From an uncultured Gammaproteobacteria bacterium (GTDB lineage: Bacteria; Patescibacteriota; Microgenomatia; UBA12405): a stretch of DNA of 41,130 nt. This document shows positions 257 through 28,952 of this stretch, piece by piece; position 1 is the stretch's first letter; each line of letters begins with the position of its first letter. The stretch is taken from positions 1,437 through 42,566 of the forward strand of contig CAYOXV010000003.1 in NCBI GenBank assembly GCA_964408055.1, in the 5' to 3' direction. The translations under genes and the position numbers were made by a program. Under the pieces are notes generated by a model. The model made no database searches and was not told the origin of the DNA. It saw only the letters and a list, made by a program, of their open reading frames with translations.

Positions 257-1153
257 TTATTTTTTTAAACCCACTAAAAACTTAATTATTTCTCTTGGTA
301 CATCAATTCCAGTTGCCTGCATAAAACCTTTAAACTGTGGTCCTTTATTTACTTCCCATACCACTGGTTTTTTAAAATCATTATCTCTAAAAGCCACATC
401 TACTCCTGCCACCAACAAACCACAAACTTTCGCCGCCTTAGTCGCCATTTCTTTTATTTCCTCTGGTAAGTCAGCTACTTCCACCTTTCCTCCCATCGAA
501 TAGTTATTTCTAAATTCTTCTTTGCTTTGACTACTTCTCTTCATTATTCCCAACACCTTATCTCCCAAAACTAATATTCTATAATCACCATCATTTGGAA
601 TAAATTCTTGCAACATATATCGTCTCCCTTCATCAATTTCTGATCTTCTTAAATCTCTCACTAATTTTTCTAAATCTTTTTGGTTATCAGCTTTAAAAAC
701 TCTAGTTCCTCTATCTCCTCCACTCCCCTTTAAAATTATTGGAAAATCCATCTTGCCTTCATTCATTACTTTTAACAAATTCCATAAACTTCCATAAATA
801 GTCTTTGGGACTTCAATCCCTGCTTTTTTTAAAGCCAACATTTGATAAGCCTTACAAGCATCACTTGGTCGTCCTTTTTCTACTAATGGGTCAACAATTA
901 TTACCTTATCTCGATCAATTGTATCTAAAACCAAATTAACTTCTTCCCAATGTTTCCCTGTTGTTCTAAAAAACAAAACTCCATAATCCTCAATTTTTTT
1001 ATTTTTAATCTTTACTTCTTCTGTTTCCGTTTCATAACTAACATCGTTGTAAGAAATCAAATCTAAACTAACTTCCATTTTTTCAGCCGCCTTTCTTAAA
1101 AGAACCAAATGTCGGCTTAATTTACCCCCATAGAAAACTCCTATTTTTATCAT
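257..1153 (-). CDS. RimK-family ATP-grasp ligase (alpha-L-glutamate ligase-like)
   Basis: The 298-aa ORF has typical RimK size and layout, including GSGGDRGTRVF (glycine-rich loop), QEFIPNDGDYRILVLGDKVLG and AGVDVAF...VWEVNKGPQF (Mg/ATP site). Confidence 0.7.
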   Translation of the reverse strand: MIKIGVFYGGKLSRHLVLLRKAAEKMEVSLDLISYNDVSYETETEEVKIKNKKIEDYGVLFFRTTGKHWEEVNLVLDTIDRDKVIIVDPLVEKGRPSDACKAYQMLALKKAGIEVPKTIYGSLWNLLKVMNEGKMDFPIILKGSGGDRGTRVFKADNQKDLEKLVRDLRRSEIDEGRRYMLQEFIPNDGDYRILVLGDKVLGIMKRSSQSKEEFRNNYSMGGKVEVADLPEEIKEMATKAAKVCGLLVAGVDVAFRDNDFKKPVVWEVNKGPQFKGFMQATGIDVPREIIKFLVGLKK

Positions 1154-1161
1154 ATTTAATT

Positions 1162-2502
1162 TTAATTTAATTTATAAATATCTTTTTTTGCACTAACTAA
1201 AAATCCATCTAAATCCTTTCTTCCTAAAAGAAATTTCGTCCTCAATTTATGTCTATCAGCTACATTAACTGCTGTAGTAATTTTCTTTCCCTTAAGCCAA
1301 AAAGTTATTCCTATTACCGGTCTATCCTTCTTTTTACCTAAGGCCGATCGATAATGTCGATAATAAAGAATTTTATCATCAGTTAATAAACCCAAATCTT
1401 GGGCTAATTTTTGATCAATTGAACTTCTAAAAGCCCCAGTATCAATCTTAACTTTCACTTCCACAAAATTCTTTTTACCCTTCCCTAATTTTATTTTTAT
1501 ATCCTCCAATGGGCCCAATGTTTTTATCTTTTCTTTTTCTACCACCTTATCAAAGAAACTTTCTCCAAATAAATATTTAGCTAAAGTAATCGCATGTTCT
1601 ACACTTCTTACTTCAATTTCATCTATTTTTTCTATTCGTGATTTTAACCCTGCCTTGTTACATATTTGAATTGAAAGTCCTGGTCTAGCATTCACTTCCA
1701 ATACTTCTGGCCCCTTTTCTTTATCCAATACCACATCAACTCCCATAAACCCTAAAGTTGGAATTGCTTTTTGACAATTTATTGCCATTTCTAATATCTC
1801 TCTCCAAAAAGGAATCTTTATTCCATTAACCTTTCTATTCTTTTTCTTACCATAATCATAAATCCTTAAAATTGAATTTACTCCACCTTCAACTCCAAAA
1901 GTAGTAATTCCAGTTGCTAAATCAATTCCCAATCCAATTGCCCCTTGATGTAAATTTGCCTTTCCTCCAGACTTTTCTGTTGGAATTCTAAACATCGCCA
2001 TCACTGGCACATTATTATAAATAATTACCCTAATATCTGGTGTCCCTGCCTTTGTTAAAGCCAAAAACAAAGGATGAATCTTAATTCTTTCTTCTACTAA
2101 AACCTTATCTGGCATCGCGTGTAAACTATATCTTCCCGCCAAAATTTCCTGACAATGTAAATTTAAATCACTAGTAGAAACTATATTTCCATTCATTTTT
2201 TGCCATTCTCCCGCCCATTTTCCTCTTCTTCGAATAATTAAAATCCCCTCTCCGCCATAGCCTGATTCTGGTTTTATTACAAAATTACCCTCCAACTCTT
2301 CCCATTTAAATTTTTCTAAATCCTCACCTGTCTTAAATCTTTTTATTAATTTTGGAACCGTCACCCCATTTTTCATTAATATTTTTTTAGTCTTAAACTT
2401 ACTATCTGCAATAGTCTTACCTGCTGCTGTATTTTTTCTCAAATATACCTTATTCCTTTCATTCATAGTTAGAAATTGTCGGTATTTTTTTAACTTAAAC
2501 AT
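1162..2502 (-). CDS. ATP-grasp ligase (alpha-L-glutamate-ligase-related type) fused to a C-terminal retropepsin-like (RimB / 'ATP-dependent Zn protease' family) domain
   Basis: The N-terminal ~320 aa carry FVIKPESGYGGEGILII, TPDIRVIIYNNVPVMAMFRIPTEKSGGKANLHQGAIGLGIDLATG and GVDVVLDKEKGPEVLEVNARPGL. The C-terminal ~115 aa carry VKVKIDTGAFRSSID, a D-T-G-A aspartic-protease signature encoded at 1435-1443. Confidence 0.7.
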   Translation of the reverse strand: MFKLKKYRQFLTMNERNKVYLRKNTAAGKTIADSKFKTKKILMKNGVTVPKLIKRFKTGEDLEKFKWEELEGNFVIKPESGYGGEGILIIRRRGKWAGEWQKMNGNIVSTSDLNLHCQEILAGRYSLHAMPDKVLVEERIKIHPLFLALTKAGTPDIRVIIYNNVPVMAMFRIPTEKSGGKANLHQGAIGLGIDLATGITTFGVEGGVNSILRIYDYGKKKNRKVNGIKIPFWREILEMAINCQKAIPTLGFMGVDVVLDKEKGPEVLEVNARPGLSIQICNKAGLKSRIEKIDEIEVRSVEHAITLAKYLFGESFFDKVVEKEKIKTLGPLEDIKIKLGKGKKNFVEVKVKIDTGAFRSSIDQKLAQDLGLLTDDKILYYRHYRSALGKKKDRPVIGITFWLKGKKITTAVNVADRHKLRTKFLLGRKDLDGFLVSAKKDIYKLN

Positions 2503-2539
2503 ATTTATTTTTAATTATTTACTATCTAAATCCAAAACT

Positions 2540-3421
2540 TTATTTCTTTTTTTCTCTTATAGCACCCTTAAATCTTTTTATTTCCGACAATCTCATCCCC
2601 TTATAATTTCCTACTAATAAATTTATTACTAAAACTAAAATCACCACCATCTCAGGATATTTCAAAACCACTCCTTGAAGCCAGTCAAAATTCATCATAA
2701 TTGCCCCAGTAATTGCCAAAATTATTGTCCCTACTGTTAATTTTTTTGCCTCTCTTTTACTCTTTACCAACTGAGTTCTAGTAAATTCTTCTGTTAAAAG
2801 AATCATGAATAAGATCGGGAAAATTGAAATTTGTCTAATATCAATTAATCTCACAAAGGAAGAAGCAATCATTAACAAAAAAGTTCCCAAAGAAATAAAC
2901 AATAAACTAATTGCTCTAGCTGGCCAAAAATGTATCTTTAATTTTCTTAAAACTAAACTACTCAAAACCGATATTAATAAAATCATGGCAAATAAAACCA
3001 ATCCTCCAAAAATACCCGTCGCTATGAAAGCAATTGCAATCATTGTTGGCATAAAAATTCCATAACCCGATAACCCCCCCATGTAATGTAGTACCGATAT
3101 TAAAGTAGCGATCAAAGGCAATAATAATAGTAATACTATAGTATTACTAGCTACTCCTCTGTTCATGGCCCGATTAATCAAAATTTTTAAACCATTAAAA
3201 CCATTCCATCTTTCTTCAACTTTTACTTCTACTGTTTTTATTTTATCTTCTACCAAATTACTTTTAACCTCTTCTATGGTTGGGACTAAAGTTGGAGAAA
3301 TTGTTGCTGTTTGGCTTGCTTCAGTAGGAGTAATCGCCCTAATTGGAACAGCTCTTACCAAGACAATACTTAAAATTAAAAAACAAAAACCAAATACTGA
3401 TAAAAGGGCAGCTTTTTTCAT
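2540..3421 (-). CDS. Polytopic membrane protein, 7TM type usually found with ATP-grasp/RimK-like ligases (no transglutaminase-like domain here)
   Basis: The 293-aa ORF has an N-terminal signal/anchor, a ~60-aa extracytoplasmic segment and then about 7 hydrophobic helices. It is the first gene of the ATP-grasp operon. Confidence 0.5.
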   Translation of the reverse strand: MKKAALLSVFGFCFLILSIVLVRAVPIRAITPTEASQTATISPTLVPTIEEVKSNLVEDKIKTVEVKVEERWNGFNGLKILINRAMNRGVASNTIVLLLLLPLIATLISVLHYMGGLSGYGIFMPTMIAIAFIATGIFGGLVLFAMILLISVLSSLVLRKLKIHFWPARAISLLFISLGTFLLMIASSFVRLIDIRQISIFPILFMILLTEEFTRTQLVKSKREAKKLTVGTIILAITGAIMMNFDWLQGVVLKYPEMVVILVLVINLLVGNYKGMRLSEIKRFKGAIREKKK

Positions 3422-3433: not shown

Positions 3434-3581
3434 GAAGAATTTAATTTAAATTATTTATTTTTTTAAATCTAATAAATTAAATAAATAATAATTTTACAGA
3501 CTAATTTGTGCCGTATTATAGCACTATTTTATTAATTTCTATCATTTTTTAAAGATAGTCACTTTTTTCTCCCATTTAAGG

Positions 3582-3587
3582 TATAAT
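3582..3587 (+). promoter_or_regulatory. -10 box (TATAAT) 7 nt upstream of the ATG of pilin paralog 1
   Basis: The sequence is gTATAATttgatcaATG, with no Shine-Dalgarno sequence. Confidence 0.5.
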
Positions 3588-3594
3588 TTGATCA

Positions 3595-3933
3595 ATGAAC
3601 AAATTATTAGCTGTCAACATTGGAGATGCCCTTTCCCTTGGTGATGGTGCCGGTAATATAGGCGATAAATATACTAGTGTTTCTCCTCTTGTTTCTTCCC
3701 TTTTAAAAAATTCCCTCGTTATTGCTGGTTTAATTTTTCTCTGTCTCTTAGTTTTTGGCGGTGTTATGTTTATTGCTAATGCTGGTAAAGGTGATGATAA
3801 AAAAGCCAGTCAATCAAAATCTGCCATTACTAGTGCCCTAATTGGTTTTGCTATTGTTTTTTCTGCCTATTTTATTATTCAAATTATTCAAGTTCTTACT
3901 GGTGTTCAGATTTTAAATTCTACGCTACAATAA
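3595..3933 (+). CDS. T4SS pilin-like small membrane protein (VirB2/TrbC-like), paralog 1
   Basis: The 112-aa ORF has two TM helices flanking the loop ANAGKGDDKK, followed by ITSALIGFAIVFSAYFII. All six neighbours share this architecture. Confidence 0.6.
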   Translation: MNKLLAVNIGDALSLGDGAGNIGDKYTSVSPLVSSLLKNSLVIAGLIFLCLLVFGGVMFIANAGKGDDKKASQSKSAITSALIGFAIVFSAYFIIQIIQVLTGVQILNSTLQ

Positions 3934-3937
3934 ACTT

Positions 3938-4261
3938 ATGTTAGGAATATTTGGAACTATTGAAAACCCTACTAATTACACTTCCAATAATGGATCAGGT
4001 CTTTTCACTCTCTTAAGTAATATCTTAAAATTAGCTGGAGTTATTGCCGGATTATTTTTTATTGTTCAAATTATTATGGCTGGCTATGGTTATATTTCTG
4101 CCAACGGTGATCCAAAAAAAACTGAAGCTGCTTGGGCTAAAATTTATCAAAGTGCTATTGGTTTAGCTATTGTTGCCAGCGCCTTTGTTCTAGCTTCAGT
4201 CATTGGTAAAGTCTTTGGTATCAATATTTTAAATCCAGTTATTTATGGACCAGGAACCTAA
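3938..4261 (+). CDS. T4SS pilin-like small membrane protein, paralog 2
   Basis: The 107-aa ORF has two TM helices, the loop SANGDPKKTEAAW and then SAIGLAIVASAFVLA. It starts 4 nt after paralog 1. Confidence 0.6.
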   Translation: MLGIFGTIENPTNYTSNNGSGLFTLLSNILKLAGVIAGLFFIVQIIMAGYGYISANGDPKKTEAAWAKIYQSAIGLAIVASAFVLASVIGKVFGINILNPVIYGPGT

Positions 4262-4264
4262 ATT

Positions 4265-4642
4265 ATGAATCAAATAACTAAATTATTAGCTGTAGCTAAA
4301 GTTACCTATGCCCCCTTAGAAGGACCAGGTATTCCTGTTAAAAGTCAAGATGGGGCTGGTGTTCAATTGGAAACTATTATTAGTACTGTTTTTGGTTTTT
4401 TAACTATAGTTGGAGTCATTTTCTTTACTCTTCAACTCATCTTTGCTGGTTATGGTTTTCTTTCTTCTCATGGTGAACCAGATAAACTCAAAATTGCTCG
4501 AACTAGATTAACTAATGGCATTCTAGGTCTTACCATTGTTGTTATTGCCTTTGGAGCTGGTGCTTTTATTGCTAATCTTCTCGGGATCCAATATATTTTT
4601 AATCTTAATGAATTTATCGGTTCAATTAAGTTAACTAATTAA
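4265..4642 (+). CDS. T4SS pilin-like small membrane protein, paralog 3
   Basis: The 125-aa ORF has the loop SSHGEPDKLK followed by GILGLTIVVIAFGAG, and an N-terminal KVTYAP motif. Confidence 0.6.
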   Translation: MNQITKLLAVAKVTYAPLEGPGIPVKSQDGAGVQLETIISTVFGFLTIVGVIFFTLQLIFAGYGFLSSHGEPDKLKIARTRLTNGILGLTIVVIAFGAGAFIANLLGIQYIFNLNEFIGSIKLTN

Positions 4643-4643
4643 T

Positions 4644-4994
4644 ATGGATTTCATTAAACCTATCTACGCTCAAATTATCAACCCAGCTCTTAAAGATTCT
4701 GAAAGCATTGTCGCTGATCCTAGTACTTATGTTAATAGTGTTATTCAATCTATTTTTAGTGTTTTCTTTATAGTTGCTGTCGTTTATTTTATTTGGCACT
4801 TTGTTATGGCTGCTTATCACATGATTTCTTCTCAAGGTGAACCTGATAAATGGAAAGCTGCTCAAAAGTCTATTCTTTATTCTCTAGTCGGTATTGTTTT
4901 GGTCTTTTCCATCTTTGCCATTCTTAAATTTGTTGGTATTGTTACTGGTGTTCAAGGGTTACAAAACCTTAAGTTAATTTGGCCATCACTTTAA
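4644..4994 (+). CDS. T4SS pilin-like small membrane protein, paralog 4
   Basis: The 116-aa ORF starts MDFIKPIYAQ and has the loop SSQGEPDKWK followed by SLVGIVLVFSIFAIL. Confidence 0.6.
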   Translation: MDFIKPIYAQIINPALKDSESIVADPSTYVNSVIQSIFSVFFIVAVVYFIWHFVMAAYHMISSQGEPDKWKAAQKSILYSLVGIVLVFSIFAILKFVGIVTGVQGLQNLKLIWPSL

Positions 4995-5051
4995 TATTTT
5001 ATTAATTACTGTTATCATCAATTAATTATCAATTAATCATTAATTAAAAAC

Positions 5052-5432
5052 ATGTTCAAAAACATAAAAAACAAAATTCAAATGTCAGCCATAGCCGCTC
5101 CAATTTACGCTGCTGATACCCTAAAACTTACTACTGAAGGTGGCAGCTTCAAAAATCTTGAAAATTTAACTGCTGGTGGTATTATTTCTGGAGCTATTAG
5201 CTTAGTTCTTATTATCGTTGCTTTAGTTTTCTTCTTCATTTTAGTCATGGGTGGTCTTCGATGGGTTACTTCTGGTGGAGATGAGAAAAAAGTTGGTGAA
5301 GCTCGTGCTCAAATTACCAATGCTTTAATCGGTTTAGCTATCGTCTTTGCTGCTTGGGCTATTATGAAACTTATTGGCACTGTCTTCGGTATTGATATCC
5401 TTGGAAATCTTACCATCCCTTCATTCCAATAA
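5052..5432 (+). CDS. T4SS pilin-like small membrane protein, paralog 5 (start could be the internal ATG at 5082)
   Basis: The 126-aa ORF has an AAPIYAAD motif and the loop TSGGDEKKVGEA followed by ALIGLAIVFAAWAIM. Confidence 0.6.
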   Translation: MFKNIKNKIQMSAIAAPIYAADTLKLTTEGGSFKNLENLTAGGIISGAISLVLIIVALVFFFILVMGGLRWVTSGGDEKKVGEARAQITNALIGLAIVFAAWAIMKLIGTVFGIDILGNLTIPSFQ

Positions 5433-5456
5433 ATTAAACAAATTAATTTAATTTTT

Positions 5457-5490
5457 AAACCCCCTGCGAGTTAATTCAAAGGGGGTTTTT
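5457..5490 (+). terminator. Rho-independent terminator after pilin paralog 5
   Basis: AAACCCCCT (5457-5465) pairs with AGGGGGTTT (5480-5488) across a 14-nt loop and is followed by a T-run. It is the only GC-rich hairpin plus T-tract seen in the window. Confidence 0.75.
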
Positions 5491-5494
5491 AGTG

Positions 5495-5500
5495 TATAAT
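5495..5500 (+). promoter_or_regulatory. -10 box (TATAAT) 6 nt upstream of the ATG at 5507 (pilin paralog 6)
   Basis: The sequence is gtgTATAATcatttt-ATG. It lies immediately after the terminator. Confidence 0.5.
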
Positions 5501-5506
5501 CATTTT

Positions 5507-5887
5507 ATGTCAAAACTGCTCAATTTTTTTATTCCTAAACCAGTTTTTGCTCAAACCCAAAAGTGGGAAATTATTAATTCTAAATGTGTTGGTACTGGTG
5601 AATTATCTGACGTCCCCACTATTAAAGGTTTTGAATGCCTTTTTTTTAACATTCTCCAAATAATTACCACTCTCGCCGGATTAATTTTTTTCTTTATGTT
5701 TATTATCGGTGGTTTTAAATATCTTACTTCTGGTGGTGACCCAAAAAAAACTGCCACTGCTTCTTCTACTTTAACTATGTCCATTATTGGTTTAGTTGGA
5801 GTTATTGTCTCCTGGTTAATTCTTCTCCTTATTAAAAACCTAACCGGAGTTGATGTTACCACCTTCACCATTCCATCCGGCAACTAA
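5507..5887 (+). CDS. T4SS pilin-like small membrane protein, paralog 6
   Basis: The track ORF begins at GTG 5492, but that codon lies inside the -10 box, so I call the ATG at 5507 (MSKLLNFFIPKPVFAQ...). The loop is TSGGDPKKTATA followed by SIIGLVGVIVSWLILLL. The stop overlaps the next ATG (TAATG). Confidence 0.6.
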   Translation: MSKLLNFFIPKPVFAQTQKWEIINSKCVGTGELSDVPTIKGFECLFFNILQIITTLAGLIFFFMFIIGGFKYLTSGGDPKKTATASSTLTMSIIGLVGVIVSWLILLLIKNLTGVDVTTFTIPSGN

Positions 5888-7491
5888 TGACCAAAAAAAT
5901 CCTTGTCCTTATCTTTTTTTTACTTATTCCTTTCAAAATTAATGCTTCTTTTGTTTATGCCCAAACACCTACTCCAGAGCCTGAAGAAGTCGAAGAAAAA
6001 AAAAGTGGTTGGGAACAGTTCTGGGATGATTTTTTAAATATAATTATCAATATCAATTCTAGTCTTAATTGGTTTATCCCTAAAAAAAATGTTCAAATAT
6101 CTTGTGAAAAACAGACAAACTTCACTGATTATAATGCCATTAACCAAAATTCCAATTCTCGAGCCCAAAGTAATTCATCTCAAAGATACCGTAAAGGTAC
6201 CTATCTTAAGGCTATTTTAGATGGTGCTTATGACGACGATACCATTGCTTATCTCTGTAATAATGTTTGTACTAATTCCAAAACTAGTGATGAAGGTTGT
6301 ATTGACATCAAATATTCCACTCTTGTCTATTATTTTTATCAAAAAGGTGAAAAAATCCTCTATGACAAATCTGATTCTAAAAAAACCATAGATTATGATT
6401 CCACTAAAATGGAATCCTATAATTACACTATTCCCCAAGGCACTGATTCCTATTTCAAAAATCTTTATAACAATATTTCTCAAATTCCTCAAGGAGCTTA
6501 CCAAGGTGAAGCTGACACTGCCGCTGGTTCCAGTAGTGAATTAAATGGAAGTCTTCGAACTTTTATCCCAGCTTCCGCTCAAACAGAGAAACCCCCTTCT
6601 GATATTACTAATACTGATAATGCAGAAAAGATGACCAAAGATAACGAATATCATCAACGAGCTCTTTACTCAAATTTTATTCCTGCTGAAAGTCAAAAAG
6701 TTTTAGGAACTACTACTGATTCACTTAATAATGGTCAAATTCTTGGTATCAGTACTGATACTGACACCCTAAAGAAAATTTTTAGTGATGACCTCCATCC
6801 CGCTTCTTGGCAAAATAATCAAGTTCTTATTGAAGAAAGCGATGAAGATGCTAAAAAAACCAGTCGTGGAATGAGCCAATATGGGGCTGTCGGTATGGCC
6901 TTATCTAATCTTGGATACGAACAAATTCTTAAAAATTATTATGGTGATATTAAAATTGTTGATATTAAAGATTATGTTTCCAACCCAAACAATATCACTA
7001 TTAATGTCCACACTCGCAGCAATGATTCTATTTCCGATAAAACAATTTCTCTTAATCTAGAAAAATATCTTAAAGGAATTGATGAAATTCAAGATTACAT
7101 TGGTAAAAAAAACGGTGGTATGAATATGCTCAAAGCCCAAGCTATTGTTTCTCGAACCTATGCTTTTGTTCGCACTGATGGTTTCAAAAATACAATCAAA
7201 GCTACCCATGCCGACCAACTTTTCACTTACAAAAAAATAGGGAAATTACCTTATCTTAGCCAAGCTGTCGACGAAACTAGTGGAAAAATTATTGTCGATA
7301 GCACAACCAATCAACCATTTGAAACAGAATTCAAATCTAAATTCTGTGGGCCCTCTCTTTCTTATCAACCAAGCAGTATTTCTGGCCGTAGTAGTAATCA
7401 CACCAACCCCTCATACACTTCAAGTCGATCTTATGAAGATATCGCCTACCAGAAACTTTACGATAAAAGTATTGATTCCACTTGTAATTAA
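5887..7491 (+). CDS. Secreted SpoIID/LytB-like peptidoglycan-remodelling protein with a long unassigned N-terminal region
   Basis: The 534-aa ORF has a signal peptide (MTKKILVLIFFLLIPFKINASFVYA|Q). Its C-terminal half carries the SpoIID motifs SRGMSQYGAVGMA...ILKNYYGD, LKAQAIVSRTYAF, HADQLFTY and SGKIIVDSTTNQPFETEF. Confidence 0.6.
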   Translation: MTKKILVLIFFLLIPFKINASFVYAQTPTPEPEEVEEKKSGWEQFWDDFLNIIININSSLNWFIPKKNVQISCEKQTNFTDYNAINQNSNSRAQSNSSQRYRKGTYLKAILDGAYDDDTIAYLCNNVCTNSKTSDEGCIDIKYSTLVYYFYQKGEKILYDKSDSKKTIDYDSTKMESYNYTIPQGTDSYFKNLYNNISQIPQGAYQGEADTAAGSSSELNGSLRTFIPASAQTEKPPSDITNTDNAEKMTKDNEYHQRALYSNFIPAESQKVLGTTTDSLNNGQILGISTDTDTLKKIFSDDLHPASWQNNQVLIEESDEDAKKTSRGMSQYGAVGMALSNLGYEQILKNYYGDIKIVDIKDYVSNPNNITINVHTRSNDSISDKTISLNLEKYLKGIDEIQDYIGKKNGGMNMLKAQAIVSRTYAFVRTDGFKNTIKATHADQLFTYKKIGKLPYLSQAVDETSGKIIVDSTTNQPFETEFKSKFCGPSLSYQPSSISGRSSNHTNPSYTSSRSYEDIAYQKLYDKSIDSTCN

Positions 7492-7515: not shown

Positions 7516-9165
7516 ATGAAATTAAAAATTAGAAATATTATCAATCGTCTCAATCGTCGTGATCTCACCCCAACCCTAAAAATCCCCAAATTTTTTAAAT
7601 TTACCCTTATCCTAATAATAATTGTTTCTACTTTCTTTTTAGTCAAAAACAATTTCACTAAAGCCGAAGAAGTTTCAATTTATACTGAACAAGGAATTGA
7701 AAATCATCCTGTCCTAACAGAACAAAATAACCGTGAGAATGGAAATAATTTATCAAGCTGGACCAATTCTTCATTAGCTGCCAATGCCGGTGCTGGGTTG
7801 GAAGCCACTTCTGGAAAATTTGAAACAGATAAATTAGGTAAAATTAGCTGGGTTCCCGGAGGAATGATTGGTCAAACCACAAAATATATTGGTTATCTCT
7901 ACAATGCTCCTGCTTCCGGTACCCTTTATATTGCTGACAATGTCAACAATTTCATTGGTAAACCTGCCTATGCTCAAAGTGGAATTGGCTATACTGGGTT
8001 ACAACCACTTCTCCCAATTTGGAAAATTTTTAGAGACATTATTTATATAATAATCTCTCTTGTTTTTGTGGTTATTGGACTTTTAATTATGCTTCGAGTC
8101 AAGATTAGTCCCCAAGCTGTTATCACTATCCAAAGTGCTATTCCAAAACTAATCAGCTCTCTTATCTTAGTTACTTTTTCTTATGCCATTGCTGGTCTAC
8201 TTATTGATTTAAGTTATGTTCTCCCAGGTCTAATCATTACCCTCTTCCTAAAATCACCTGCTATTAATGCTATTTATCAAGCCATGCTCTCTAACCAAAT
8301 TGAAGCTCTTAAATTATTTTTTACCAATCTCACAGATATCAATGCTACTGTTCTTAATAATGACTTTTTAAACGGTGCTATAAATCCAAATCCCTATATT
8401 CTTTTCGCTTATGTTGGTCAAATGGCCCCAATGGCAAATGTTATGGGAGTGTTAGTTTTACTTGGGCTTGCCCTAACCCCTACAATGGGAATAAGCGTCA
8501 TTCTTGGTGTCGTTGCTGCTATTCTTGCTCCTTTAATTCTTTCTATCATGATTCTAATTTGGATGATTAAGTTCTTTGTTGGTTTACTTAAGTGTTATTT
8601 CAATGTTATTTTAAAAATTATTTTAGCTCCTTTAGAAATTGGCTTAGGCGCTATCCCAAATATGAAATTAGGTTTTGGTAGTTGGTTTATCGGACTAGTC
8701 GCTAACCTTATTGTTTTCCCAGCCTGCACTCTCTTTATATTATTAGTTGTTATTGTTGTCCATACTATTCCTAATTTAGGTCTTTGGGCTCCAGATTTAA
8801 TTCAACTTACAGATGCTAGTTTTATTGCCAAAACTTGTATTGGCCTTGGAGCTCTTATGCTTCTCCCTAAACTTCCAAAATTAATTCCAGAAGCTATCTT
8901 CCAACTCAAACCATCACCATTTGGTACTGCTATTGGTGAAAGTGCTAAACCACTTGGTAATTTTGGTAAAGGTATTGGTAATACGGTTGTTAGTGGTGCC
9001 CGTGGAGGAATTGGTGATGCTATTGGAAACAGAGTTGCAGGAAGCAACTCTAGATTAGGTAATTGGATTTCTGGTGGTAGACCTCCAGTAGGTGGTGGTA
9101 ATCCTCCAGCAGGTGGTGGTAATCCTCCAGCAGGTGGTGGTAATCCTGGCCCTCATACTCCTTAA
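7516..9165 (+). CDS. VirB6/TrbL-like polytopic T4SS membrane protein with a Gly/Pro repeat tail
   Basis: The 549-aa ORF has an N-terminal anchor, a ~130-aa exposed segment, then many TM helices. The C-terminal tail is glycine-rich and ends GGGNPPAGGGNPPAGGGNPGPHTP. The gene sits directly after the pilin and wall-enzyme genes. Confidence 0.5.
   Translation: MKLKIRNIINRLNRRDLTPTLKIPKFFKFTLILIIIVSTFFLVKNNFTKAEEVSIYTEQGIENHPVLTEQNNRENGNNLSSWTNSSLAANAGAGLEATSGKFETDKLGKISWVPGGMIGQTTKYIGYLYNAPASGTLYIADNVNNFIGKPAYAQSGIGYTGLQPLLPIWKIFRDIIYIIISLVFVVIGLLIMLRVKISPQAVITIQSAIPKLISSLILVTFSYAIAGLLIDLSYVLPGLIITLFLKSPAINAIYQAMLSNQIEALKLFFTNLTDINATVLNNDFLNGAINPNPYILFAYVGQMAPMANVMGVLVLLGLALTPTMGISVILGVVAAILAPLILSIMILIWMIKFFVGLLKCYFNVILKIILAPLEIGLGAIPNMKLGFGSWFIGLVANLIVFPACTLFILLVVIVVHTIPNLGLWAPDLIQLTDASFIAKTCIGLGALMLLPKLPKLIPEAIFQLKPSPFGTAIGESAKPLGNFGKGIGNTVVSGARGGIGDAIGNRVAGSNSRLGNWISGGRPPVGGGNPPAGGGNPPAGGGNPGPHTP
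9073..9150 (+). repeat. Tandem 21-bp coding repeat (GGTGGTGGTAATCCTCCAGCA; two full copies, plus a truncated 18-nt third copy and a degenerate leading copy)
   Basis: Copies at 9091-9111 and 9112-9132 are identical. A partial copy lies at 9133-9150 and a degenerate copy at 9073-9090. Together they encode the GGGNPPA repeats. Confidence 0.85.
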
Positions 9166-9283: not shown

Positions 9284-11620
9284 TTATTTACCCTTTATTC
9301 CATCAATAAAACCTTTAAAAAAGACTCTTCTTCCTGCCCTTCTTCTACTTAATGACATTGCTTGTGCAAAATTATATTCTTTACCACTAGATTCATCATG
9401 AGCAATAACTTGACTACTTATCCAATTCCACATACCCTCATTTAAAAAAGAATCAGCTGTTGTAGATAATTTAGTCTCCACCATTGCCTTCCTCAAATCC
9501 ATTAAATTATAATTATCCCAACCTAATCCATCTTTAGTTGCAACCAATTCCAACACACCCAAAGCATATTTTGAACGTAAACCCTTTTTACCTTCACGTG
9601 ATTTTTTCCCTACTATTTCTTCTCCATTCACCAAAAATTTTTCACCAACTTTTTTAACATCATTGTCCACTCCATTGATCTTATATTTTGAAACTCTCTT
9701 TCCTGTCCGATAATCATAATCATAACTAAGTTCTACTTCCTTCCACCCTAAACCAGGTAAATTAACTATATCTACAGAAGGATCTGTTTTACTAAAACAA
9801 TCCACAATAGAATTAAAATAATTAGCCCCAACCGCAACCATTTTCTTAGGATCTGGTGCATTGTCTAAAAACGCCTGTTTAACAGGTAAAACTTTACTCA
9901 TCATTTCCTGTGTAAAATAATATACAAAAGTATTTTTTTCATTATTACCTTCAACGAAAATATCTTTCGCCTCAATCATTCCTGTATCGTATCGACCAGA
10001 CATTCTTCTTAACCATCCTGGAGTCAAACTTTGGACATCCATATTAGACATTGCTCCCACATTTTTACCTTTTCTTGCATCATCAGCCCTATAATAAGCA
10101 AAATGAACACATTCAGCAAAATCATCACCATTGACTAATCCAAAATTAAAAGTAGATCTTTCCCCTGAGGCACTTACTAATTTATGTGCCAATTGATATG
10201 CTTTAGCTGCATCCATTCCAGTAGATTCTTTTATTTTTTTAATGATATAAGTATCCACTTTTTGTTTTCTACTTGAATTAGAATCCATCCAATATCCATT
10301 TACAAAACCCTCTATAGTCGTTCCCTTATCGTAAGGAGGATTAACCAATTTAAGTTTTAAAAGATCTATCGCCTCATCAGGACTAATTTTCATATCAGGG
10401 TCAGCTACCATTTCCTCTAAAACTTTTTTATAATCAAAATTAGCTCTTTGAATCCAATCCCAAGCCTCATCTACTGGTACACCAAACTTCTTTTTACCCG
10501 AATCACGTAATAAAAATTTTAACCTTTCTTCGGTAAGAACCCTATCCGCCTGTCCTATCTTGTCAACGGCCACTGATATTCCACCTCTATCTGATAATTT
10601 AAAAGCAGAATCTTCCATATAATAAGCCGAATCATGTAAAGCTAATCTCGATCTAATCATAAGATCTACATCCTTATAAGATATAACATCCGGATTAGTC
10701 GATTTTTCAGAATACATTTTTAATCTAACCTGATCCAATAAAGTATTTAATTGACGAGTATTTTCACTAATTTCATTAGTCGGGTAAGTTGAATTCTCTT
10801 GTCTATCCAACAAGACACTTGCATATTTAAAGGCTTTTTCTGGAGTACTAAGATCTGTTTCCTTATCCTTACCAAACACATCTTTAATTTTATCTGCTGC
10901 TTCACCAAATTTTTTAGCAGCCTCATCTATTTCCTTTCCATCACCAACTTTCCTTCCTGATTCTTCCATAACATTTTTAATTTCTTCTTTAATCCCAATA
11001 TCTTTCATTCTTTCTCTACATGTCTCAACATACATTCTAACCAAAGATCCACCATCTTCTCCATCTTTTTTCTCCCATTTTTTATAAAACTTTCCTCGAG
11101 TCTCATCACTTGCTTTGTCAAACAAACCTTCCTCTTCTATCCTCTTATTAATTATCAACAAATCACTTTCTTCTTCTTTTGTTATTTTCCTTTCTTTAAT
11201 AAATTTACCTACACCTTTCACTTCTTCTACAAGAAGACTATCAATATCTTCCGCTGATAATTGATCAGTAACTAAATCTTTTCCTAAAGCACTTGCATTC
11301 ATTGCTATAAAAACAGCATCAACCATACTATCCCTGTCAGATTCAGCCACTTTCTTATTACCATTAGGATTATCACAAGCTTCCAAAATCGATTCAAATG
11401 ATTTATATCCTGGAGTTCTCCCATATTTTTCCAAAACTCTCAAAGCCAATTCTGAACCCTTTTGTTTATCTTCGCTACCAAAAAACTCAACATTATTTTT
11501 AAGTAAATCAGAAGCATTTATTTGAGTATTTTTTATCTTATCTGTTTCTATCTTTACTTCAATGTTACGACTAAACCTCTCTTTAAAGAGATCGCCTCCC
11601 ATTGGTTGAATTTCACTCAT
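9284..11620 (-). CDS. Large hypothetical protein, no recognisable domain, no signal peptide or TM helix
   Basis: The 778-aa ORF is uninterrupted and has its own -10 box. I recognise no motifs in it. Confidence 0.6.
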   Translation of the reverse strand: MSEIQPMGGDLFKERFSRNIEVKIETDKIKNTQINASDLLKNNVEFFGSEDKQKGSELALRVLEKYGRTPGYKSFESILEACDNPNGNKKVAESDRDSMVDAVFIAMNASALGKDLVTDQLSAEDIDSLLVEEVKGVGKFIKERKITKEEESDLLIINKRIEEEGLFDKASDETRGKFYKKWEKKDGEDGGSLVRMYVETCRERMKDIGIKEEIKNVMEESGRKVGDGKEIDEAAKKFGEAADKIKDVFGKDKETDLSTPEKAFKYASVLLDRQENSTYPTNEISENTRQLNTLLDQVRLKMYSEKSTNPDVISYKDVDLMIRSRLALHDSAYYMEDSAFKLSDRGGISVAVDKIGQADRVLTEERLKFLLRDSGKKKFGVPVDEAWDWIQRANFDYKKVLEEMVADPDMKISPDEAIDLLKLKLVNPPYDKGTTIEGFVNGYWMDSNSSRKQKVDTYIIKKIKESTGMDAAKAYQLAHKLVSASGERSTFNFGLVNGDDFAECVHFAYYRADDARKGKNVGAMSNMDVQSLTPGWLRRMSGRYDTGMIEAKDIFVEGNNEKNTFVYYFTQEMMSKVLPVKQAFLDNAPDPKKMVAVGANYFNSIVDCFSKTDPSVDIVNLPGLGWKEVELSYDYDYRTGKRVSKYKINGVDNDVKKVGEKFLVNGEEIVGKKSREGKKGLRSKYALGVLELVATKDGLGWDNYNLMDLRKAMVETKLSTTADSFLNEGMWNWISSQVIAHDESSGKEYNFAQAMSLSRRRAGRRVFFKGFIDGIKGK

Positions 11621-11628
11621 ATGCCCAA

Positions 11629-11637
11629 ATTATACCA
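11629..11637 (-). promoter_or_regulatory. Extended -10 box (TGgTATAAT) 8 nt upstream of the ATG of the 778-aa gene
   Basis: The minus strand reads TGGTATAAT-TTGGGCAT-ATG. The box lies in the 23-nt gap after ftsH. Confidence 0.5.
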
Positions 11638-11643
11638 ATTTTA

Positions 11644-13617
11644 TTATTTCAATACCATCAATTCTTCAAATTCCTCTTCCCCTAAACTTTCTTTTTCCAT
11701 TAATACTTTAGCCACTCTTTCCAATTTTTTCTTGTTTTTAATTAAAACTCTTTTGGCCTCAGCAAATGCTTCATCAACTAATTTTTTAATTTCTCTATCT
11801 ACTTTTGACAACATCCTATCAGAAATTTTTGATGGTTCCATATAAGCTTTCCCAAAATCCCCTATATCAATTTGTGGTCCTAAATTTATTGGTCCTAATT
11901 CTGACATCCCCCATTCCACCACCATATTTCTAGCAATATTAGTTGCGTGAGAAATGTCTGATGATGCTCCAGTAGTAATGTCTTTAAAAATTATTTCTTC
12001 TGCCGCTCTTCCTCCCATAGCCATAGCCATTTGTTTTATCAACTTATCCTTTGTCATATGAATAATATCTTTCTTAGGCGGAATTAAGGTAAATCCTAAT
12101 GCCATTCCTCGTGAAACGATTGAAATCTTGGAAACTGGGTCAAGACCCTCTGCATGATTTACAATTGCATGTCCCGCCTCATGGTAAGCAGTCATTAATT
12201 TATCTTCATCAGTTTGATTTCTTCTTTTTTCTGATCCCATTTTTACCTTCAAAGATGCCTCTTCAATGTCCTTAGCCTCAATTTTAATTTTATTAACCCT
12301 AGCTGCTCCAATCGCTGCTTCATTTAACATATTTTCTAATTCTGCTCCCGAAAAACCCACTGTTCCTTTAGCCACCGTTTCCCAATTTACATCATCAGCA
12401 AATGGTTTCCCTTTAGCATGTATTGCTAAAATTTCTTTTCTTGCTTCAAGATCAGGCATTTCCAATACTACTCTTCTATCAAATCGGCCAGGTCTTAATA
12501 ATGCTGGATCAAGTAAATCTCCCCTATTAGTTGCTGCCAATACCACTATTGCTGTATTAGCTTCAAATCCATCCATTTCTACCAAAATTTGATTTAAAGT
12601 TTGTTCTCTTTCTCCATGACCACCATCCATTCCCCCTCTAACTCTTCCAATAGCATCAATTTCATCAATAAAAATAATTGCCTTTCCTGCTTTTTTAGCA
12701 GTTCCAAATAAATCTCTTACTCGTGAAGCTCCAACTCCTACCAACATTTCCATAAATTCTGATCCCGCCATTGAATAAAAAGGAACGTTTGCTTCTCCAG
12801 CTGCTGCCTTAGCTAATAAAGTTTTACCTACTCCACTTGGTCCTACTAATAAAACTCCCTTTGGTGCCCTAGCCCCCATTTTGTGATATTTTTCTGGATG
12901 TTTCAAAAAATCAACTACTTCCATCAAATCATCCTTGGCTTCTTTTACTCCAGCCACATCTTTAAAAGTCAAACTTTGTTTTCCTTTAACAAATAGTTTT
13001 GCTGTTGATTTCCCAAATCCAAACATACCACCACCGCCAGCCCCACCAGATTGTTTTCTTAAAAACCATAAAATAAATAAGATTGGTATTCCCACTGACA
13101 AAACTAATGTTAATACCTCACCCAACATTTTCCATCCCTGTTTATTATCAACTTTCAAATTAACTTGAGCTAAATCTACCCCTTCTTTTTGTAAAATTTC
13201 AGTTAAAGAAATTGAAGTTTCTTTTGAAGAAACCAAAACTTTATCTTCACTCTTTAGTTGCGCTAAAATTTCATTATCAGTCACTGTAATTTCTGAAATG
13301 TCATTTTTCTTAGCTGATTCAATTATCTGAGAAATCGGTACTTGTGATATATTTTCTGACACTAATAACTGTTTTAAAGTTGATATTACCCAAAAAATTA
13401 AAATTACGTAAATAATTGTCCTAATTATTTGTTTTGGTCCAATCTCAATTTTTTTAATTTTTACTCCTGGTGGTAAATTTTTCAAAAATTCATCATTAAT
13501 ATTTGATTTTTTATCCTGTTTTTTGGGATTTTCTTTATTCTCACCCGTTTTAACCTGGTCTTTAGAATCCTTTACCATTTTCTTAAATTTATTAAATATC
13601 TCTTGGCTTTTTTTCAT
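11644..13617 (-). CDS. ftsH: ATP-dependent zinc metalloprotease FtsH
   Basis: It has Walker A GPSGVGKTLLAKA, Walker B IIFIDEIDA, a second region of homology (ATNRGDLLDPALLRPGRFDR) and the zinc site HEAGHA, plus two N-terminal TM helices. I place the start at ATG 13617; the track GTG at 13623 falls between the -10 box and this ATG. Confidence 0.95.
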   Translation of the reverse strand: MKKSQEIFNKFKKMVKDSKDQVKTGENKENPKKQDKKSNINDEFLKNLPPGVKIKKIEIGPKQIIRTIIYVILIFWVISTLKQLLVSENISQVPISQIIESAKKNDISEITVTDNEILAQLKSEDKVLVSSKETSISLTEILQKEGVDLAQVNLKVDNKQGWKMLGEVLTLVLSVGIPILFILWFLRKQSGGAGGGGMFGFGKSTAKLFVKGKQSLTFKDVAGVKEAKDDLMEVVDFLKHPEKYHKMGARAPKGVLLVGPSGVGKTLLAKAAAGEANVPFYSMAGSEFMEMLVGVGASRVRDLFGTAKKAGKAIIFIDEIDAIGRVRGGMDGGHGEREQTLNQILVEMDGFEANTAIVVLAATNRGDLLDPALLRPGRFDRRVVLEMPDLEARKEILAIHAKGKPFADDVNWETVAKGTVGFSGAELENMLNEAAIGAARVNKIKIEAKDIEEASLKVKMGSEKRRNQTDEDKLMTAYHEAGHAIVNHAEGLDPVSKISIVSRGMALGFTLIPPKKDIIHMTKDKLIKQMAMAMGGRAAEEIIFKDITTGASSDISHATNIARNMVVEWGMSELGPINLGPQIDIGDFGKAYMEPSKISDRMLSKVDREIKKLVDEAFAEAKRVLIKNKKKLERVAKVLMEKESLGEEEFEELMVLK

Positions 13618-13623
13618 CCTCAC

Positions 13624-13629
13624 ATTATA
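13624..13629 (-). promoter_or_regulatory. -10 box (TATAAT) 6 nt upstream of the ftsH ATG
   Basis: The minus strand reads TATAAT-GTGAGG-ATG. Confidence 0.5.
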
Positions 13630-13653
13630 CCATTCAAGCCAATCTCTCCAAAC

Positions 13654-13662
13654 TGTTAAAAT
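13654..13662 (+). promoter_or_regulatory. Extended -10 box (TGtTAAAAT) 8 nt upstream of ATG 13671
   Basis: The sequence is TGTTAAAAT-aaattaat-ATG. Confidence 0.45.
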
Positions 13663-13670
13663 AAATTAAT

Positions 13671-14441
13671 ATGTCTGAAACCAAAAACGAAATTCCACAA
13701 GTCATTCAAGAAATTACCCAAGATCAAATCAGACAACAAAATCAAGAAACAACTTTAAAAATTCTAAACCAAAACTCTGAAATCAAAAAAATGATAAATA
13801 CTATTTCTGAAAACCATCAATTAAATAATTTTGAAGATAAAAGTAATATTCCTATTCCTTTTTCATTAATTGAAAGAAACAAAACTGATATTTTTCTTCA
13901 ATCACAAATCGTCACCGAATACCAAAAATTAGTTAAACAAATTAACTCTCCAAAATTAGCTTTTGAATATCCTTTTATCTTAGTCGGTCATCAACAAACA
14001 GATCCAGATGGTTATCAATATATTGTTTTTAATGAGTTGGTTCACACTCAAAAAGACGCCACCATTTTAGAAAAAAATGAAGTCGAACACGATCCAAACA
14101 AAATCAGACAAGCTTTAAAAAAAGGTGACGTTATTGCTCTTGGACATACTCACCCATATCTAACTGACAAAGAAACTTCCAATTATTTTACTAACAAAAT
14201 TAACCCCGATATTAAAGATGAATATCATATAAAAAGAATCGGTTTAAATCTATCTCTCCAAGATATTTACAACGGTATTCAACTTAAAAGAGGATTACCA
14301 AACAAAAATGTTTATTCCTGTTTAATTATGTACAATGGCGAAATTGGATTAATCGATCACAACCAAAATAGTATAACTAAGGCAAATAATATTATTGGTG
14401 TTACTGAAAAAGAAATAATAAACATTCCCTCACCTAATTAA
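13671..14441 (+). CDS. Hypothetical protein, possible divergent JAB/MPN-like metalloenzyme
   Basis: The 256-aa ORF contains, in order, FEYPFILVG, VIALGHTHPY and NLSLQDI. This resembles the E...HxH...SxxD JAMM signature, but with a long insertion between HxH and SxxD. Confidence 0.3.
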   Translation: MSETKNEIPQVIQEITQDQIRQQNQETTLKILNQNSEIKKMINTISENHQLNNFEDKSNIPIPFSLIERNKTDIFLQSQIVTEYQKLVKQINSPKLAFEYPFILVGHQQTDPDGYQYIVFNELVHTQKDATILEKNEVEHDPNKIRQALKKGDVIALGHTHPYLTDKETSNYFTNKINPDIKDEYHIKRIGLNLSLQDIYNGIQLKRGLPNKNVYSCLIMYNGEIGLIDHNQNSITKANNIIGVTEKEIINIPSPN

Positions 14442-14474
14442 ATTTTCCGCATTTTCCCCGTTTTTAAACCGCAA

Positions 14475-14762
14475 CTAATATTTACTCAACTCTATTAAAA
14501 GTTCTTTGTTATCATTTTTTGCCGCATCTACCCAAAAATCATGGTTACAACTTTCACATTTAAAATAAATCCTAAACTTTTCACTTCCATATTCACTTCT
14601 AATTGGCCTCATTAATCCTCGACAATGGCTCAACCTATCCCCTGGTATTTCCTCATCTACATGTTTCCCCCATAAACAAATTGGGCAATGATCAGTTGTT
14701 CCACTCCCAATTACCTTTTCTCCACAAACTTCACAAATAAAATCCTCCACTACTTTTTTCAT
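14475..14762 (-). CDS. RNHCP-domain zinc-ribbon protein
   Basis: The 95-aa ORF reads FICEVCGEKV...TDHCPICLWGKHVDEEIPGDRLSHCRGLMRPI...FKCESCNH. This matches the RNHCP domain pattern, with TDHCP in place of RNHCP. An ATGA start/stop overlap links it to the upstream gene. Confidence 0.65.
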   Translation of the reverse strand: MKKVVEDFICEVCGEKVIGSGTTDHCPICLWGKHVDEEIPGDRLSHCRGLMRPIRSEYGSEKFRIYFKCESCNHDFWVDAAKNDNKELLIELSKY

Positions 14763-24086: not shown

Positions 24087-24379
24087 TTTTTATAAAATTG
24101 TCCACATTTTTAAATCACTTATCCACTATTTTATCCACACTTTAAAAATTATTTTCCCCCGAAGATTAACCCCAACCAAGTCAATTTTATAAGATAAAAA
24201 ATCAACTTTTATCCTTAAAATAAACCAAAAAATCCCTTTCCACTATTAATTAATACAAAAAAACATCTAAAGATCGTCAATTTTATTATTTATTCCACTT
24301 ATTAACCAACTCTAATAAGAACTAATACTAATTTATTATTAATCTTTTAATAAACCAAATTTTTTGATAATATAAGACA
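24087..24379. other. Probable oriC: DnaA-box cluster plus AT-rich unwinding region between dnaA and dnaN
   Basis: The boxes are TTGTCCACA (24098-24106), TTATCCACT (24119-24127) and TTATCCACA (24131-24139). Weaker TTTCCACT/TTATTCCAC-like sites lie further on. The stretch toward 24379 is very AT-rich. Confidence 0.7.
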
Positions 24380-28946: not shown

Positions 28947-28952
28947 CAATAA

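Follow-up and report, generated by a model that had tools for sequence, protein, structure and literature searches.

A tandem array of six genes, W1 to W6, lies within a 41,130-nucleotide (nt) stretch of contig CAYOXV010000003.1 (assembly GCA_964408055.1; hereafter, the window), and its products are ancient, non-redundant paralogs of the VirB2-like pilin family of Patescibacteria (PF18895). Each product forms a membrane hairpin of two helices joined by a short lysine-rich loop, all six are under purifying selection, and the same chromosome also carries a monoderm-type type IV secretion system (T4SS) operon (PrgI-TrsD-VirB4-hydrolase). With moderate confidence, we read W1-W6 as non-redundant subunits of a single T4SS-associated surface filament or tube in which W5 is the major subunit. 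Arrays of VirB2-like pilins are already published as a kind, and this locus adds no new kind of system. What is new here is the one-to-one positional orthology of the paralogs in more than 20 related genomes, the purifying selection that acts on them, their probable division into separate transcription units with a structure-conserved terminator-like hairpin after W5, the SpoIID-domain protein and probable VirB6-like protein that follow W6, and hairpin fusions in other Patescibacteria. These organisms, which live attached to host cells, account for a large share of bacterial diversity. In the one species tested their T4SS is essential, and the pilin arrays are its oddest feature, monoderm T4SSs being otherwise pilus-less.

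W1-W6 are consecutive plus-strand open reading frames (ORFs) at positions 3595-5887, and the ORF listing bears out the 107-126 amino acids (aa) that an initial annotation of this DNA gave them, with W6 counted from the ATG at 5507. An alternative GTG start for W6 at 5492 would yield 131 aa; the ATG is supported because this GTG sits within a conserved TGTATAAT box. All six share a common plan of a variable N-terminus, a first transmembrane segment, a Lys-rich G-[DE]-x-x-K loop and a second transmembrane segment, and hydropathy shows two hydrophobic segments in each, one on either side of the loop. The loop strings that the initial annotation quoted are all exact (Table 1), and its loop pattern G-[DE]-[PDE]-[KD]-K matches six of six. 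Its core for the second transmembrane segment, [AS]-[LI]-[IV]-G-[LFI]-x-I-V, fits only W1 and W5 as written; W2, W3, W4 and W6 deviate from it at one or two positions, and invariance is limited to the G and the last V. W2 lacks an N-terminal leader-like segment, and the exposed N-terminal segment of W6 contains two conserved cysteines. The intergenic gaps measure 4, 3, 1, 57 and 59 or 74 nt, so that three of the five, rather than the four originally counted, are 1-4 nt. The stop codon of W6 and the start codon of the following gene overlap (TAATG at 5885-5889).

The paralogs are strongly diverged, with protein identities of 27-38% in pairwise comparisons and 21-36% in a six-way alignment (mean 29-32%). 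Codon-aligned nucleotide identity is 44-55%, and DNA identity of 63-75% is confined to 60-120-nt patches around the first transmembrane segment and the loop. The genes are thus old duplicates, as had been proposed; a recent amplification of the array is ruled out by the 44-55% nucleotide identity.

All six proteins score above the gathering score of PF18895 (T4SS_pilin; 29.4-43.8 bits versus 26.6), so that similarity to a T4SS pilin profile extends over the whole array. Because each ORF matches PF18895 (E values of 1e-7 to 3e-11) and has conserved orthologs, the array does not reflect a chance run of ORFs. An AlphaFold2 model of W5, based on a 100-sequence alignment, shows a helix at residues 41-73, a four-residue loop and a second helix at residues 78-112, with predicted local distance difference test (pLDDT) values above 90 there and the first 40 residues disordered. 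This helix-loop-helix is compatible with the two-helix hairpin that the initial annotation had envisaged. The loops of W1-W6 carry three or four Lys/Arg residues (net charge +1 to +2), and both terminal segments range from neutral to slightly acidic. By the positive-inside rule, the Lys-rich loop and near-neutral termini predict an N-out/C-out hairpin, which is the topology of VirB2-type pilins.

A HMMER scan of 1.84 billion representatives with a window-based profile (E<=1e-3) identified 53,208 members of the PF18895-type family. Three proteins from this search, P0378, P0398 and P0461, pass the thresholds of both PF18895 and PF04956 (TrbC/VirB2), with PF04956 E values of 1.5e-13, 1.2e-42 and 1.4e-31, respectively, and in each the two models score best over overlapping or adjoining stretches. 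Since these proteins satisfy both models, they link the family indirectly (transitively) to true conjugative pilins. The best NCBIfam match for all six paralogs is NF045849 (Mbov_0395, a pilin-like protein of a Mycoplasma integrative and conjugative element, ICE; E values of 8e-8 to 3e-3), with scores of 17.4-31.8 bits that lie below the 40-bit cut-off of that family.

Related loci were sought with an alignment of W2 orthologs. A Candidatus Shapirobacteria metagenome-assembled genome (MAG), GCA_028710865.1, contains the same six genes in the same order, and its positional orthologs (locus L001) are 62-91% identical to W1-W6, versus 18-33% for non-orthologous pairs. The W1-W6 order is kept in 14 of 18 GTDB species-representative loci, of which 12 have six genes and 2 have additional W5-like copies. 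Among the other four, L010 and L014 open at a contig start, where W1 would be cut off, L018 ends at a contig end after W2, and L013 has upstream sequence in which W1 was not detected. L023, the most distant locus, shows five genes. In three additional metagenome loci, arrays of 6-7 pilin genes stand in the same synteny. Within the clade, copy number was seen to change only by one or two extra W5-like genes, in L015 and L019. Copy number and order are therefore kept in relatives, for all six paralogs rather than for one. Flanking synteny is also kept throughout, with a divergent RimK/ATP-grasp/7TM_transglut operon upstream and a SpoIID-like protein, the family of a 549-aa protein, a large minus-strand protein and FtsH downstream.

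Each paralog is constrained at the protein level, with Nei-Gojobori ratios of nonsynonymous to synonymous substitution (dN/dS) that span 0-0.31 in comparison with a close relative and 0.09-0.29 in comparison with the Shapirobacteria MAG. Positional orthologs of W1 in relatives are 45-97% identical, twenty closer homologs of W2 are 70-98% identical with the exposed N-terminus included (dN/dS 0.06-0.09), and W3 orthologs hold position 3. W4 of L004 is a 100% identical protein with 13 synonymous changes. The hairpin of W5 is the most conserved, with a mean identity of 81% over 20 orthologs and dN/dS of 0-0.09. Within orthologous sets, the hairpin is 60-81% identical and the exposed N- and C-terminal segments 33-58%.

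This pattern bears on whether W1-W6 might instead be interchangeable major pilins, each building a filament alone, that together serve as a repertoire for host-range or antigenic variation. An analogy of this kind, to the trwL genes of Bartonella and the virB2 genes of Anaplasma, has been drawn for Patescibacteria (PMC12102498), and half of the TM7x array genes shift expression between infection stages (bioRxiv 10.1101/2022.03.25.485537). The greater variability of the exposed segments relative to the hairpin would also fit such a repertoire, but the exposed N-terminus of W2 is itself conserved, and dN/dS stays within 0-0.31 for every paralog. Gains of W5-like copies in L015 and L019 could be read as diversification, yet they are the only turnover in six subfamilies that otherwise show strict one-to-one positional orthology across more than 20 species, and we found none of the long, highly identical DNA tracts that recent gene conversion would leave. 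Moreover, the gaps of 1-4 nt between W1 and W4 imply that these proteins are made together, and the array is essential in Southlakia epibionticum (PMC10633639). We therefore regard a set of interchangeable pilins as unlikely; the evidence favours non-redundant, co-assembling subunits over interchangeable antigenic variants.

Putative expression signals divide the array. A GGTATAAT-N6-7-ATG arrangement before W1 recurs in most of 17 related loci inspected, and a TGTTATCAT/TGTTATTAT box lies about 30 nt before W5 in most relatives. The hairpin in the W5-W6 spacer folds as RNA with an energy of -15.8 kcal/mol (z = -2.4). A simple terminator scan did not call it, and we accept it as terminator-like because of its folding energy and its structural conservation: relatives have a hairpin and T run at the same place with different stem sequences, indicating that the element is conserved as a structure and not as a sequence. 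In the TGTATAAT box before W6, the TATAAT is invariant in a six-locus alignment, and the box is present in most relatives. The recurrence of -10 boxes 6-7 nt before the ATG codons of W1 and W6 suggests leaderless transcripts. From these signals, the array would comprise at least two and probably three transcription units: W1-W4, W5 with its terminator, and W6 with the genes for the SpoIID-domain and VirB6-like proteins. The initial annotation had taken the short gaps to suggest stoichiometric co-expression; for the array as a whole this is unsupported, as the conserved terminator and separate promoter-like boxes split it. We also observed a 21-nt element (TATTTTATTAATTnCT..AT) in two copies, 86% identical, at 3525-3545 and 4995-5015 on the plus strand, about 50 nt before W1 and W5, possibly a shared promoter or operator.

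In other Patescibacteria, diverged hairpins of this family are joined in single proteins. Of the 150 best-scoring representatives among the 53,208, 121 are single polypeptides with 2-10 hairpin repeats as counted by hidden Markov model and up to 11 as counted by Pfam, a proportion that is no estimate of frequency since ranking by score favours repeats. Repeats within one poly-pilin are 21-71% identical, each is full pilin-sized, and some poly-pilins (among P0361-P0510) carry C-terminal extensions of 200-366 aa. PIT98131.1 of Candidatus Andersenbacteria is a member of one poly-pilin cluster. In locus L035, an eight-repeat poly-pilin (9925-12387) is a continuous 820-aa ORF under translation table 11, which rules out a gene-calling artefact as the source of the fusion there. 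It is followed at 12675-16481 by a single pilin, a 383-aa fusion of an N-terminal pilin hairpin to a PKD domain and a 718-aa protein with six PKD domains, an arrangement that suggests adhesin-bearing minor pilins and, with them, a surface-exposed C-terminus. Hairpin fusions are not mentioned in the literature that our search found. By Rosetta-stone logic, such natural fusions imply that the diverged hairpins act next to one another in a single assembly. Together with strict orthology, purifying selection and the split units, they argue for paralogs that are separate components of a common assembly.

That assembly could also lie wholly within the membrane, as a hetero-oligomeric ring or channel lining of a monoderm T4SS translocon with no filament, comparable to rotor c-rings, whose hairpins are likewise tandem-fused in some lineages. 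Fusions of 8-11 hairpins (16-22 transmembrane helices) resemble ordinary polytopic membrane proteins, ATP synthase subunit c appears at rank 25 among the weak Foldseek matches of W5, and W6 appears from its sequence context to be co-transcribed with a polytopic VirB6-like protein. Gram-positive T4SSs, in addition, are described as pilus-less (PMC12102498; PMC12857230). The family members that also match TrbC/VirB2, however, point to pilin ancestry, and the variable exposed segments (33-58%, versus 60-81% for the hairpin), together with C-terminal PKD domains and long extensions, suggest selection at the surface, although the segments of a protein that stays anchored in the membrane could vary in the same way. 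We consider a purely membrane-embedded ring or channel less likely than a filament, though a serious rival to it.

Two genes follow W6. The first, found downstream of the array in most relatives, encodes a secreted 534-aa SpoIID-domain protein that is probably a cell-wall remodelling partner analogous to VirB1. The second encodes a 549-aa protein whose AlphaFold2 model has pLDDT values above 85 in the membrane core. Its five best Foldseek matches in the PDB are all chains of the R388 TrwJ/VirB5-TrwI/VirB6 stalk complex, the best with an E value of 0.035 and a probability of 0.99, at TM-scores of 0.22-0.38 for the five. From entry titles and chain lengths, the matched chains are probably TrwI rather than TrwJ; a search with A. 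tumefaciens VirB6 gave no match among PDB sequences. The TrbL/VirB6 model PF04610 is matched by 1 of 54 members of the family of the 549-aa protein (E value of 0.0035). This weak but consistent evidence makes the protein a probable, not proven, VirB6-like component. As VirB6 is reported to be scarce in Microgenomatia (PMC12102498), the family, with more than 1000 members and no Pfam domain, is a candidate for it.

The window has a G+C content of about 31% and is a chromosomal replication-origin region, as shown by the presence of rnpA, yidC, jag, dnaA and dnaN. The genome is a Shapirobacteria-like one of the Microgenomates: the MAGs that contain close homologs carry the label Candidatus Shapirobacteria, Microgenomates group, Patescibacteria. 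A compact minus-strand operon (32979-25507) encodes a PrgI/VirB3-like protein, a TrsD-like protein that resembles the N-terminal domain of VirB4, VirB4 itself, a 976-aa protein with NlpC/P60 and endonuclease/exonuclease/phosphatase (EEP) domains, which is the last large gene of the operon, and a 160-aa protein. The VirB4, TrsD-like and PrgI-like genes are thus in the window, 21-27 kb from the array. Pfam scans of 36 of the 37 window genes revealed no relaxase or VirD4 coupling protein.

The position of this operon leaves room for a reading in which the six proteins have no part in a T4SS and are small secreted or membrane proteins, possibly substrates of the divergent ATP-grasp/7TM-transglutaminase module. 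The TM7x array was reportedly first annotated as Sec-secreted effectors, and PF18895 itself owes its name to an inference. About 20 kb separate the array from VirB4, and the 7TM_transglut and ATP-grasp genes are the array's invariable divergent neighbour; a VirB6-like candidate, on the other hand, lies adjacent. Other members of the family satisfy the TrbC/VirB2 model, and all six paralogs give sub-threshold matches to NF045849. Elsewhere, a pilin gene lies near virB4 in 1,135 assemblies and, in Saccharimonadia, within the T4SS cluster (PMC12102498; PMC10633639). A role unrelated to a T4SS is in our view highly improbable.

In the model we favour, in which W1-W6 are subunits of one surface filament or tube, the hairpins would insert N-out/C-out with the loop in the cytoplasm, and the T4SS would take the pilins from the membrane by means of the VirB4/TrsD ATPase and the downstream VirB6-like protein. 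A SpoIID-type wall hydrolase would open the wall, and W1-W6 would be assembled together into one heteromeric surface filament or tube linking the epibiont to its host. W5 would most likely be the bulk subunit and W1-W4 co-translated accessory subunits. W6 would be produced alongside the wall hydrolase and the VirB6-like protein, and may be the subunit that initiates assembly or forms the base. W5 is the best candidate for the bulk subunit because a promoter-like box and a terminator of its own flank it, its hairpin is the most conserved, it is the only paralog to have been duplicated and it bears the closest resemblance to distant family members.

Several points weigh against this model. The surface filament is unproven, and we know of no pilus seen on any monoderm T4SS, or on any Patescibacterium by way of a T4SS. 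The case for W5 as major subunit is circumstantial, the promoter and terminator assignments are putative and based on sequence, and a generic promoter scan returned no more sites than shuffled sequences did, so that the W4-W5 site is a lead only. VirB4 is not adjacent to the array, the VirB6-like call rests on an E value of 0.035 and low TM-scores, and polypeptides of up to 11 fused hairpins suit an assembly embedded in the membrane as well as they do a filament. The VirB2/TrbC pilin layout proposed in the initial annotation holds as far as PF18895 and the modelled W5 hairpin go, while direct similarity to VirB2 is undetectable: W1-W6 have no PF04956 match at E<=1, and a profile of 100 sequences aligned to eight annotated VirB2/TrbC proteins gave an hhalign probability of 1.3%, in a comparison whose VirB2 side, drawn from plasmids, is shallow and alphaproteobacterial only. 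Those eight proteins match PF04956, and none matches PF18895. When the W5 hairpin model was compared to the PDB with Foldseek, generic helical hairpins were returned, none at E<=0.001, and T-pilus entries were absent among the 50 matches listed; a two-helix hairpin is too simple to discriminate, so this result neither supports nor refutes a VirB2 fold. The pilin alignment profile likewise gave chance-level matches only against PDB sequences.

In a more specific form of the model, which we put forward tentatively, each of the six paralogs would need the others, and all would polymerise together, in a fixed arrangement, to give a heteromeric VirB2-type tube. Such a tube, if real, would be the first pilus-like conduit in a monoderm T4SS, serving the exchange of material between epibiont and host, and the poly-pilins of 2-11 fused hairpins would represent the same structure as one chain. 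The array would then be a parts list of a major subunit, W5, and five specialised subunits, and not a repertoire of variation.

Pilin arrays have been described in Patescibacteria before. Using transposon sequencing, Wang et al. (2023; PMC10633639) found an essential pilin array in S. epibionticum, later counted as six pilins (PMC12857230). Quinonero-Coronel et al. (2025; PMC12102498), with PF18895 among the profiles used, counted 441 arrays, each of 2-11 pilin genes, across 383 assemblies and above all in Microgenomatia and Saccharimonadia; mean identity was 25% and the maximum 54%. They noted T4SS genes near dnaA and, with Bartonella and Anaplasma as analogues, suggested an adaptation to different host strains. 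The rarity of multi-pilin arrays implied in the initial annotation accordingly does not apply to Patescibacteria, where they are common. Like these arrays (S. epibionticum ML1 SEML1_0006-0019, Nanosynbacter lyticus TM7x and the 441 surveyed), W1-W6 belong to PF18895, fall within the range of 2-11 genes, with six as in S. epibionticum, and show low paralog identity (27-38% here). They also share VirB4/TrsD/PrgI partners like those of the MPF-FATA class of mating-pair-formation systems, a location near dnaA and, within the window, no relaxase or coupling protein seen nearby. Unlike them, the array lies about 20 kb from virB4, across dnaA, and not inside the T4SS cluster; a SpoIID-domain protein and a VirB6-like candidate follow it, and an ATP-grasp/7TM-transglutaminase operon faces it.

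Among better-known systems, the TrbC/VirB2/TraA pilins of diderms (PF04956; 8cue, 8exh) resemble W1-W6 in their roughly 70-100 mature residues, helix-loop-helix, basic loop and predicted N-out/C-out topology. The leader-like N-termini of W4 and W6 end in A-Q (KPIYA-Q and KPVFA-Q), comparable to the invariant PAxA-Q of true VirB2. In contrast to diderm systems, the host here is monoderm, six co-conserved paralogs stand in place of one gene, and VirB5, VirB7, VirB9 and VirB10 partners are lacking. The trwL array of Bartonella and the virB2 arrays of Anaplasma and Ehrlichia also have several tandem VirB2-type genes for one T4SS, and these copies are considered to form or vary a host-contacting surface pilus (cited in PMC12102498). 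Whereas those arrays are read as variable, lineage-specific amplifications tied to host adaptation or immune evasion, W1-W6 are ancient, strictly orthologous across species and under purifying selection. The Mycoplasma ICE protein of NF045849 is, like W1-W6, a small pilin-like protein with two transmembrane segments in a monoderm MPF-FATA-type system; its gene is, to our knowledge, single-copy. The major and minor pilins of type IV pili and of type II secretion pseudopili offer an analogy only: one abundant subunit is joined there by conserved, non-interchangeable subunits of low abundance, which prime assembly or carry adhesive tips. Their fold and machinery (prepilin peptidase, PilB/PilC) are unrelated, and W1-W6 have no class III signal peptide.

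Table 1. Features of the window and of two related loci. Positions are those of the window unless a locus is named.
Feature	Position	Strand	Description
TATAAT box	3582-3587	+	7 nt before W1 ATG; putative promoter of a leaderless or near-leaderless W1-W4 transcript
W1, pilin paralog 1	3595-3933	+	112 aa; loop GKGDDKK; PF18895 32.0 bits, E 1.4e-7
W2, pilin paralog 2	3938-4261	+	107 aa; loop NGDPKK; PF18895 42.8 bits
W3, pilin paralog 3	4265-4642	+	125 aa; loop HGEPDK; PF18895 29.4 bits
W4, pilin paralog 4	4644-4994	+	116 aa; loop QGEPDK; N-terminus MDFIKPIYAQ; PF18895 30.3 bits
Promoter-like site TTAATA-16-TATCAT with TG	4991-5018	+	57-nt W4-W5 spacer; from consensus scan
W5, pilin paralog 5	5052-5432	+	126 aa; loop GGDEKK; PF18895 35.4 bits
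Intrinsic-terminator-like hairpin AAACCCCC...GGGGGTTTTT	5457-5490	+	W5-W6 spacer; G+C-rich stem followed by T run
Putative extended -10 box TGTATAAT	5493-5500	+	6 nt before W6 ATG
W6, pilin paralog 6	5507(ATG)-5887	+	126 aa; loop GGDPKK; PF18895 43.8 bits
SpoIID-domain protein	5887-7491	+	534 aa; PF08486 SpoIID E 1.9e-7; N-terminal signal-like segment
Polytopic membrane protein	7516-9165	+	549 aa; no Pfam match; >1000 homologs
976-aa NlpC/P60 and EEP protein	26019-28949	-	PF00877, PF03372
VirB4-type ATPase	28977-31331	-	784 aa; PF19044 P-loop_TraG E 8.4e-30; AAA_10 E 3e-13
TrsD-like protein	31334-32035	-	233 aa; NF041427 TrsD E 2.6e-9 and VirB4 models, all below cut-offs
PrgI/VirB3-like membrane protein	32050-32979	-	309 aa; PF12666 PrgI E 5.4e-5, 24.1 bits versus cut-off 27
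KPxYAQ-type motif sites, pilins	4665-4673 (W4), 5106-5114 (W5), 5546-5554 (W6)		N-termini
KPxYAQ-type motif sites, other proteins	7969-7977; 39989-39997		residues 152-154 of 549-aa protein; start of 152-aa membrane protein
Extra W5-like genes	L015 8642-9037; L019 6284-7616		inserted between W4 and W6

A short motif, [PT]-[AIVT]-[YF]-A-[QAEP] (typically KPxYAQ), occurs only five times among the 37 window proteins (Table 1). Its occurrence in the 549-aa VirB6-like protein is at a family-invariant position just ahead of the polytopic core. The motif may be a shared processing or recognition site, and it is similar to the PAxA-Q at the leader end of true VirB2.

The divergent operon upstream of the array (257-3421, minus strand) encodes a 7TM_transglut membrane protein, an ATPgrasp_ST protein whose C-terminus is an aspartyl/Zn-protease-like domain, and at least one RimK-type ATP-grasp ligase. 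It is kept in most of the related loci examined (L001, L004, L006-L023 and L032-L034), and is not visible in L010 and L014, which start at the contig start. In a search with the 7TM_transglut protein, all of the at least 120 matches listed were at least 58% identical (same clade). This operon may encode a system for peptide modification with the pilins as its targets, or may simply reflect inherited synteny.

In the VirB4 operon, the 976-aa protein combines a Lys/Glu-rich N-terminal region, transmembrane segments, an NlpC/P60 wall-hydrolase domain and a C-terminal EEP domain; the extra nuclease/phosphatase domain is notable for a nucleotide-scavenging organism. Across the window (1-41130), plus-strand GC skew is negative in all 1-kb bins but one (+0.012 at 4001-5000). 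The skew keeps its sign at dnaA/dnaN (22743-25501) and is weaker where genes are on the plus strand.

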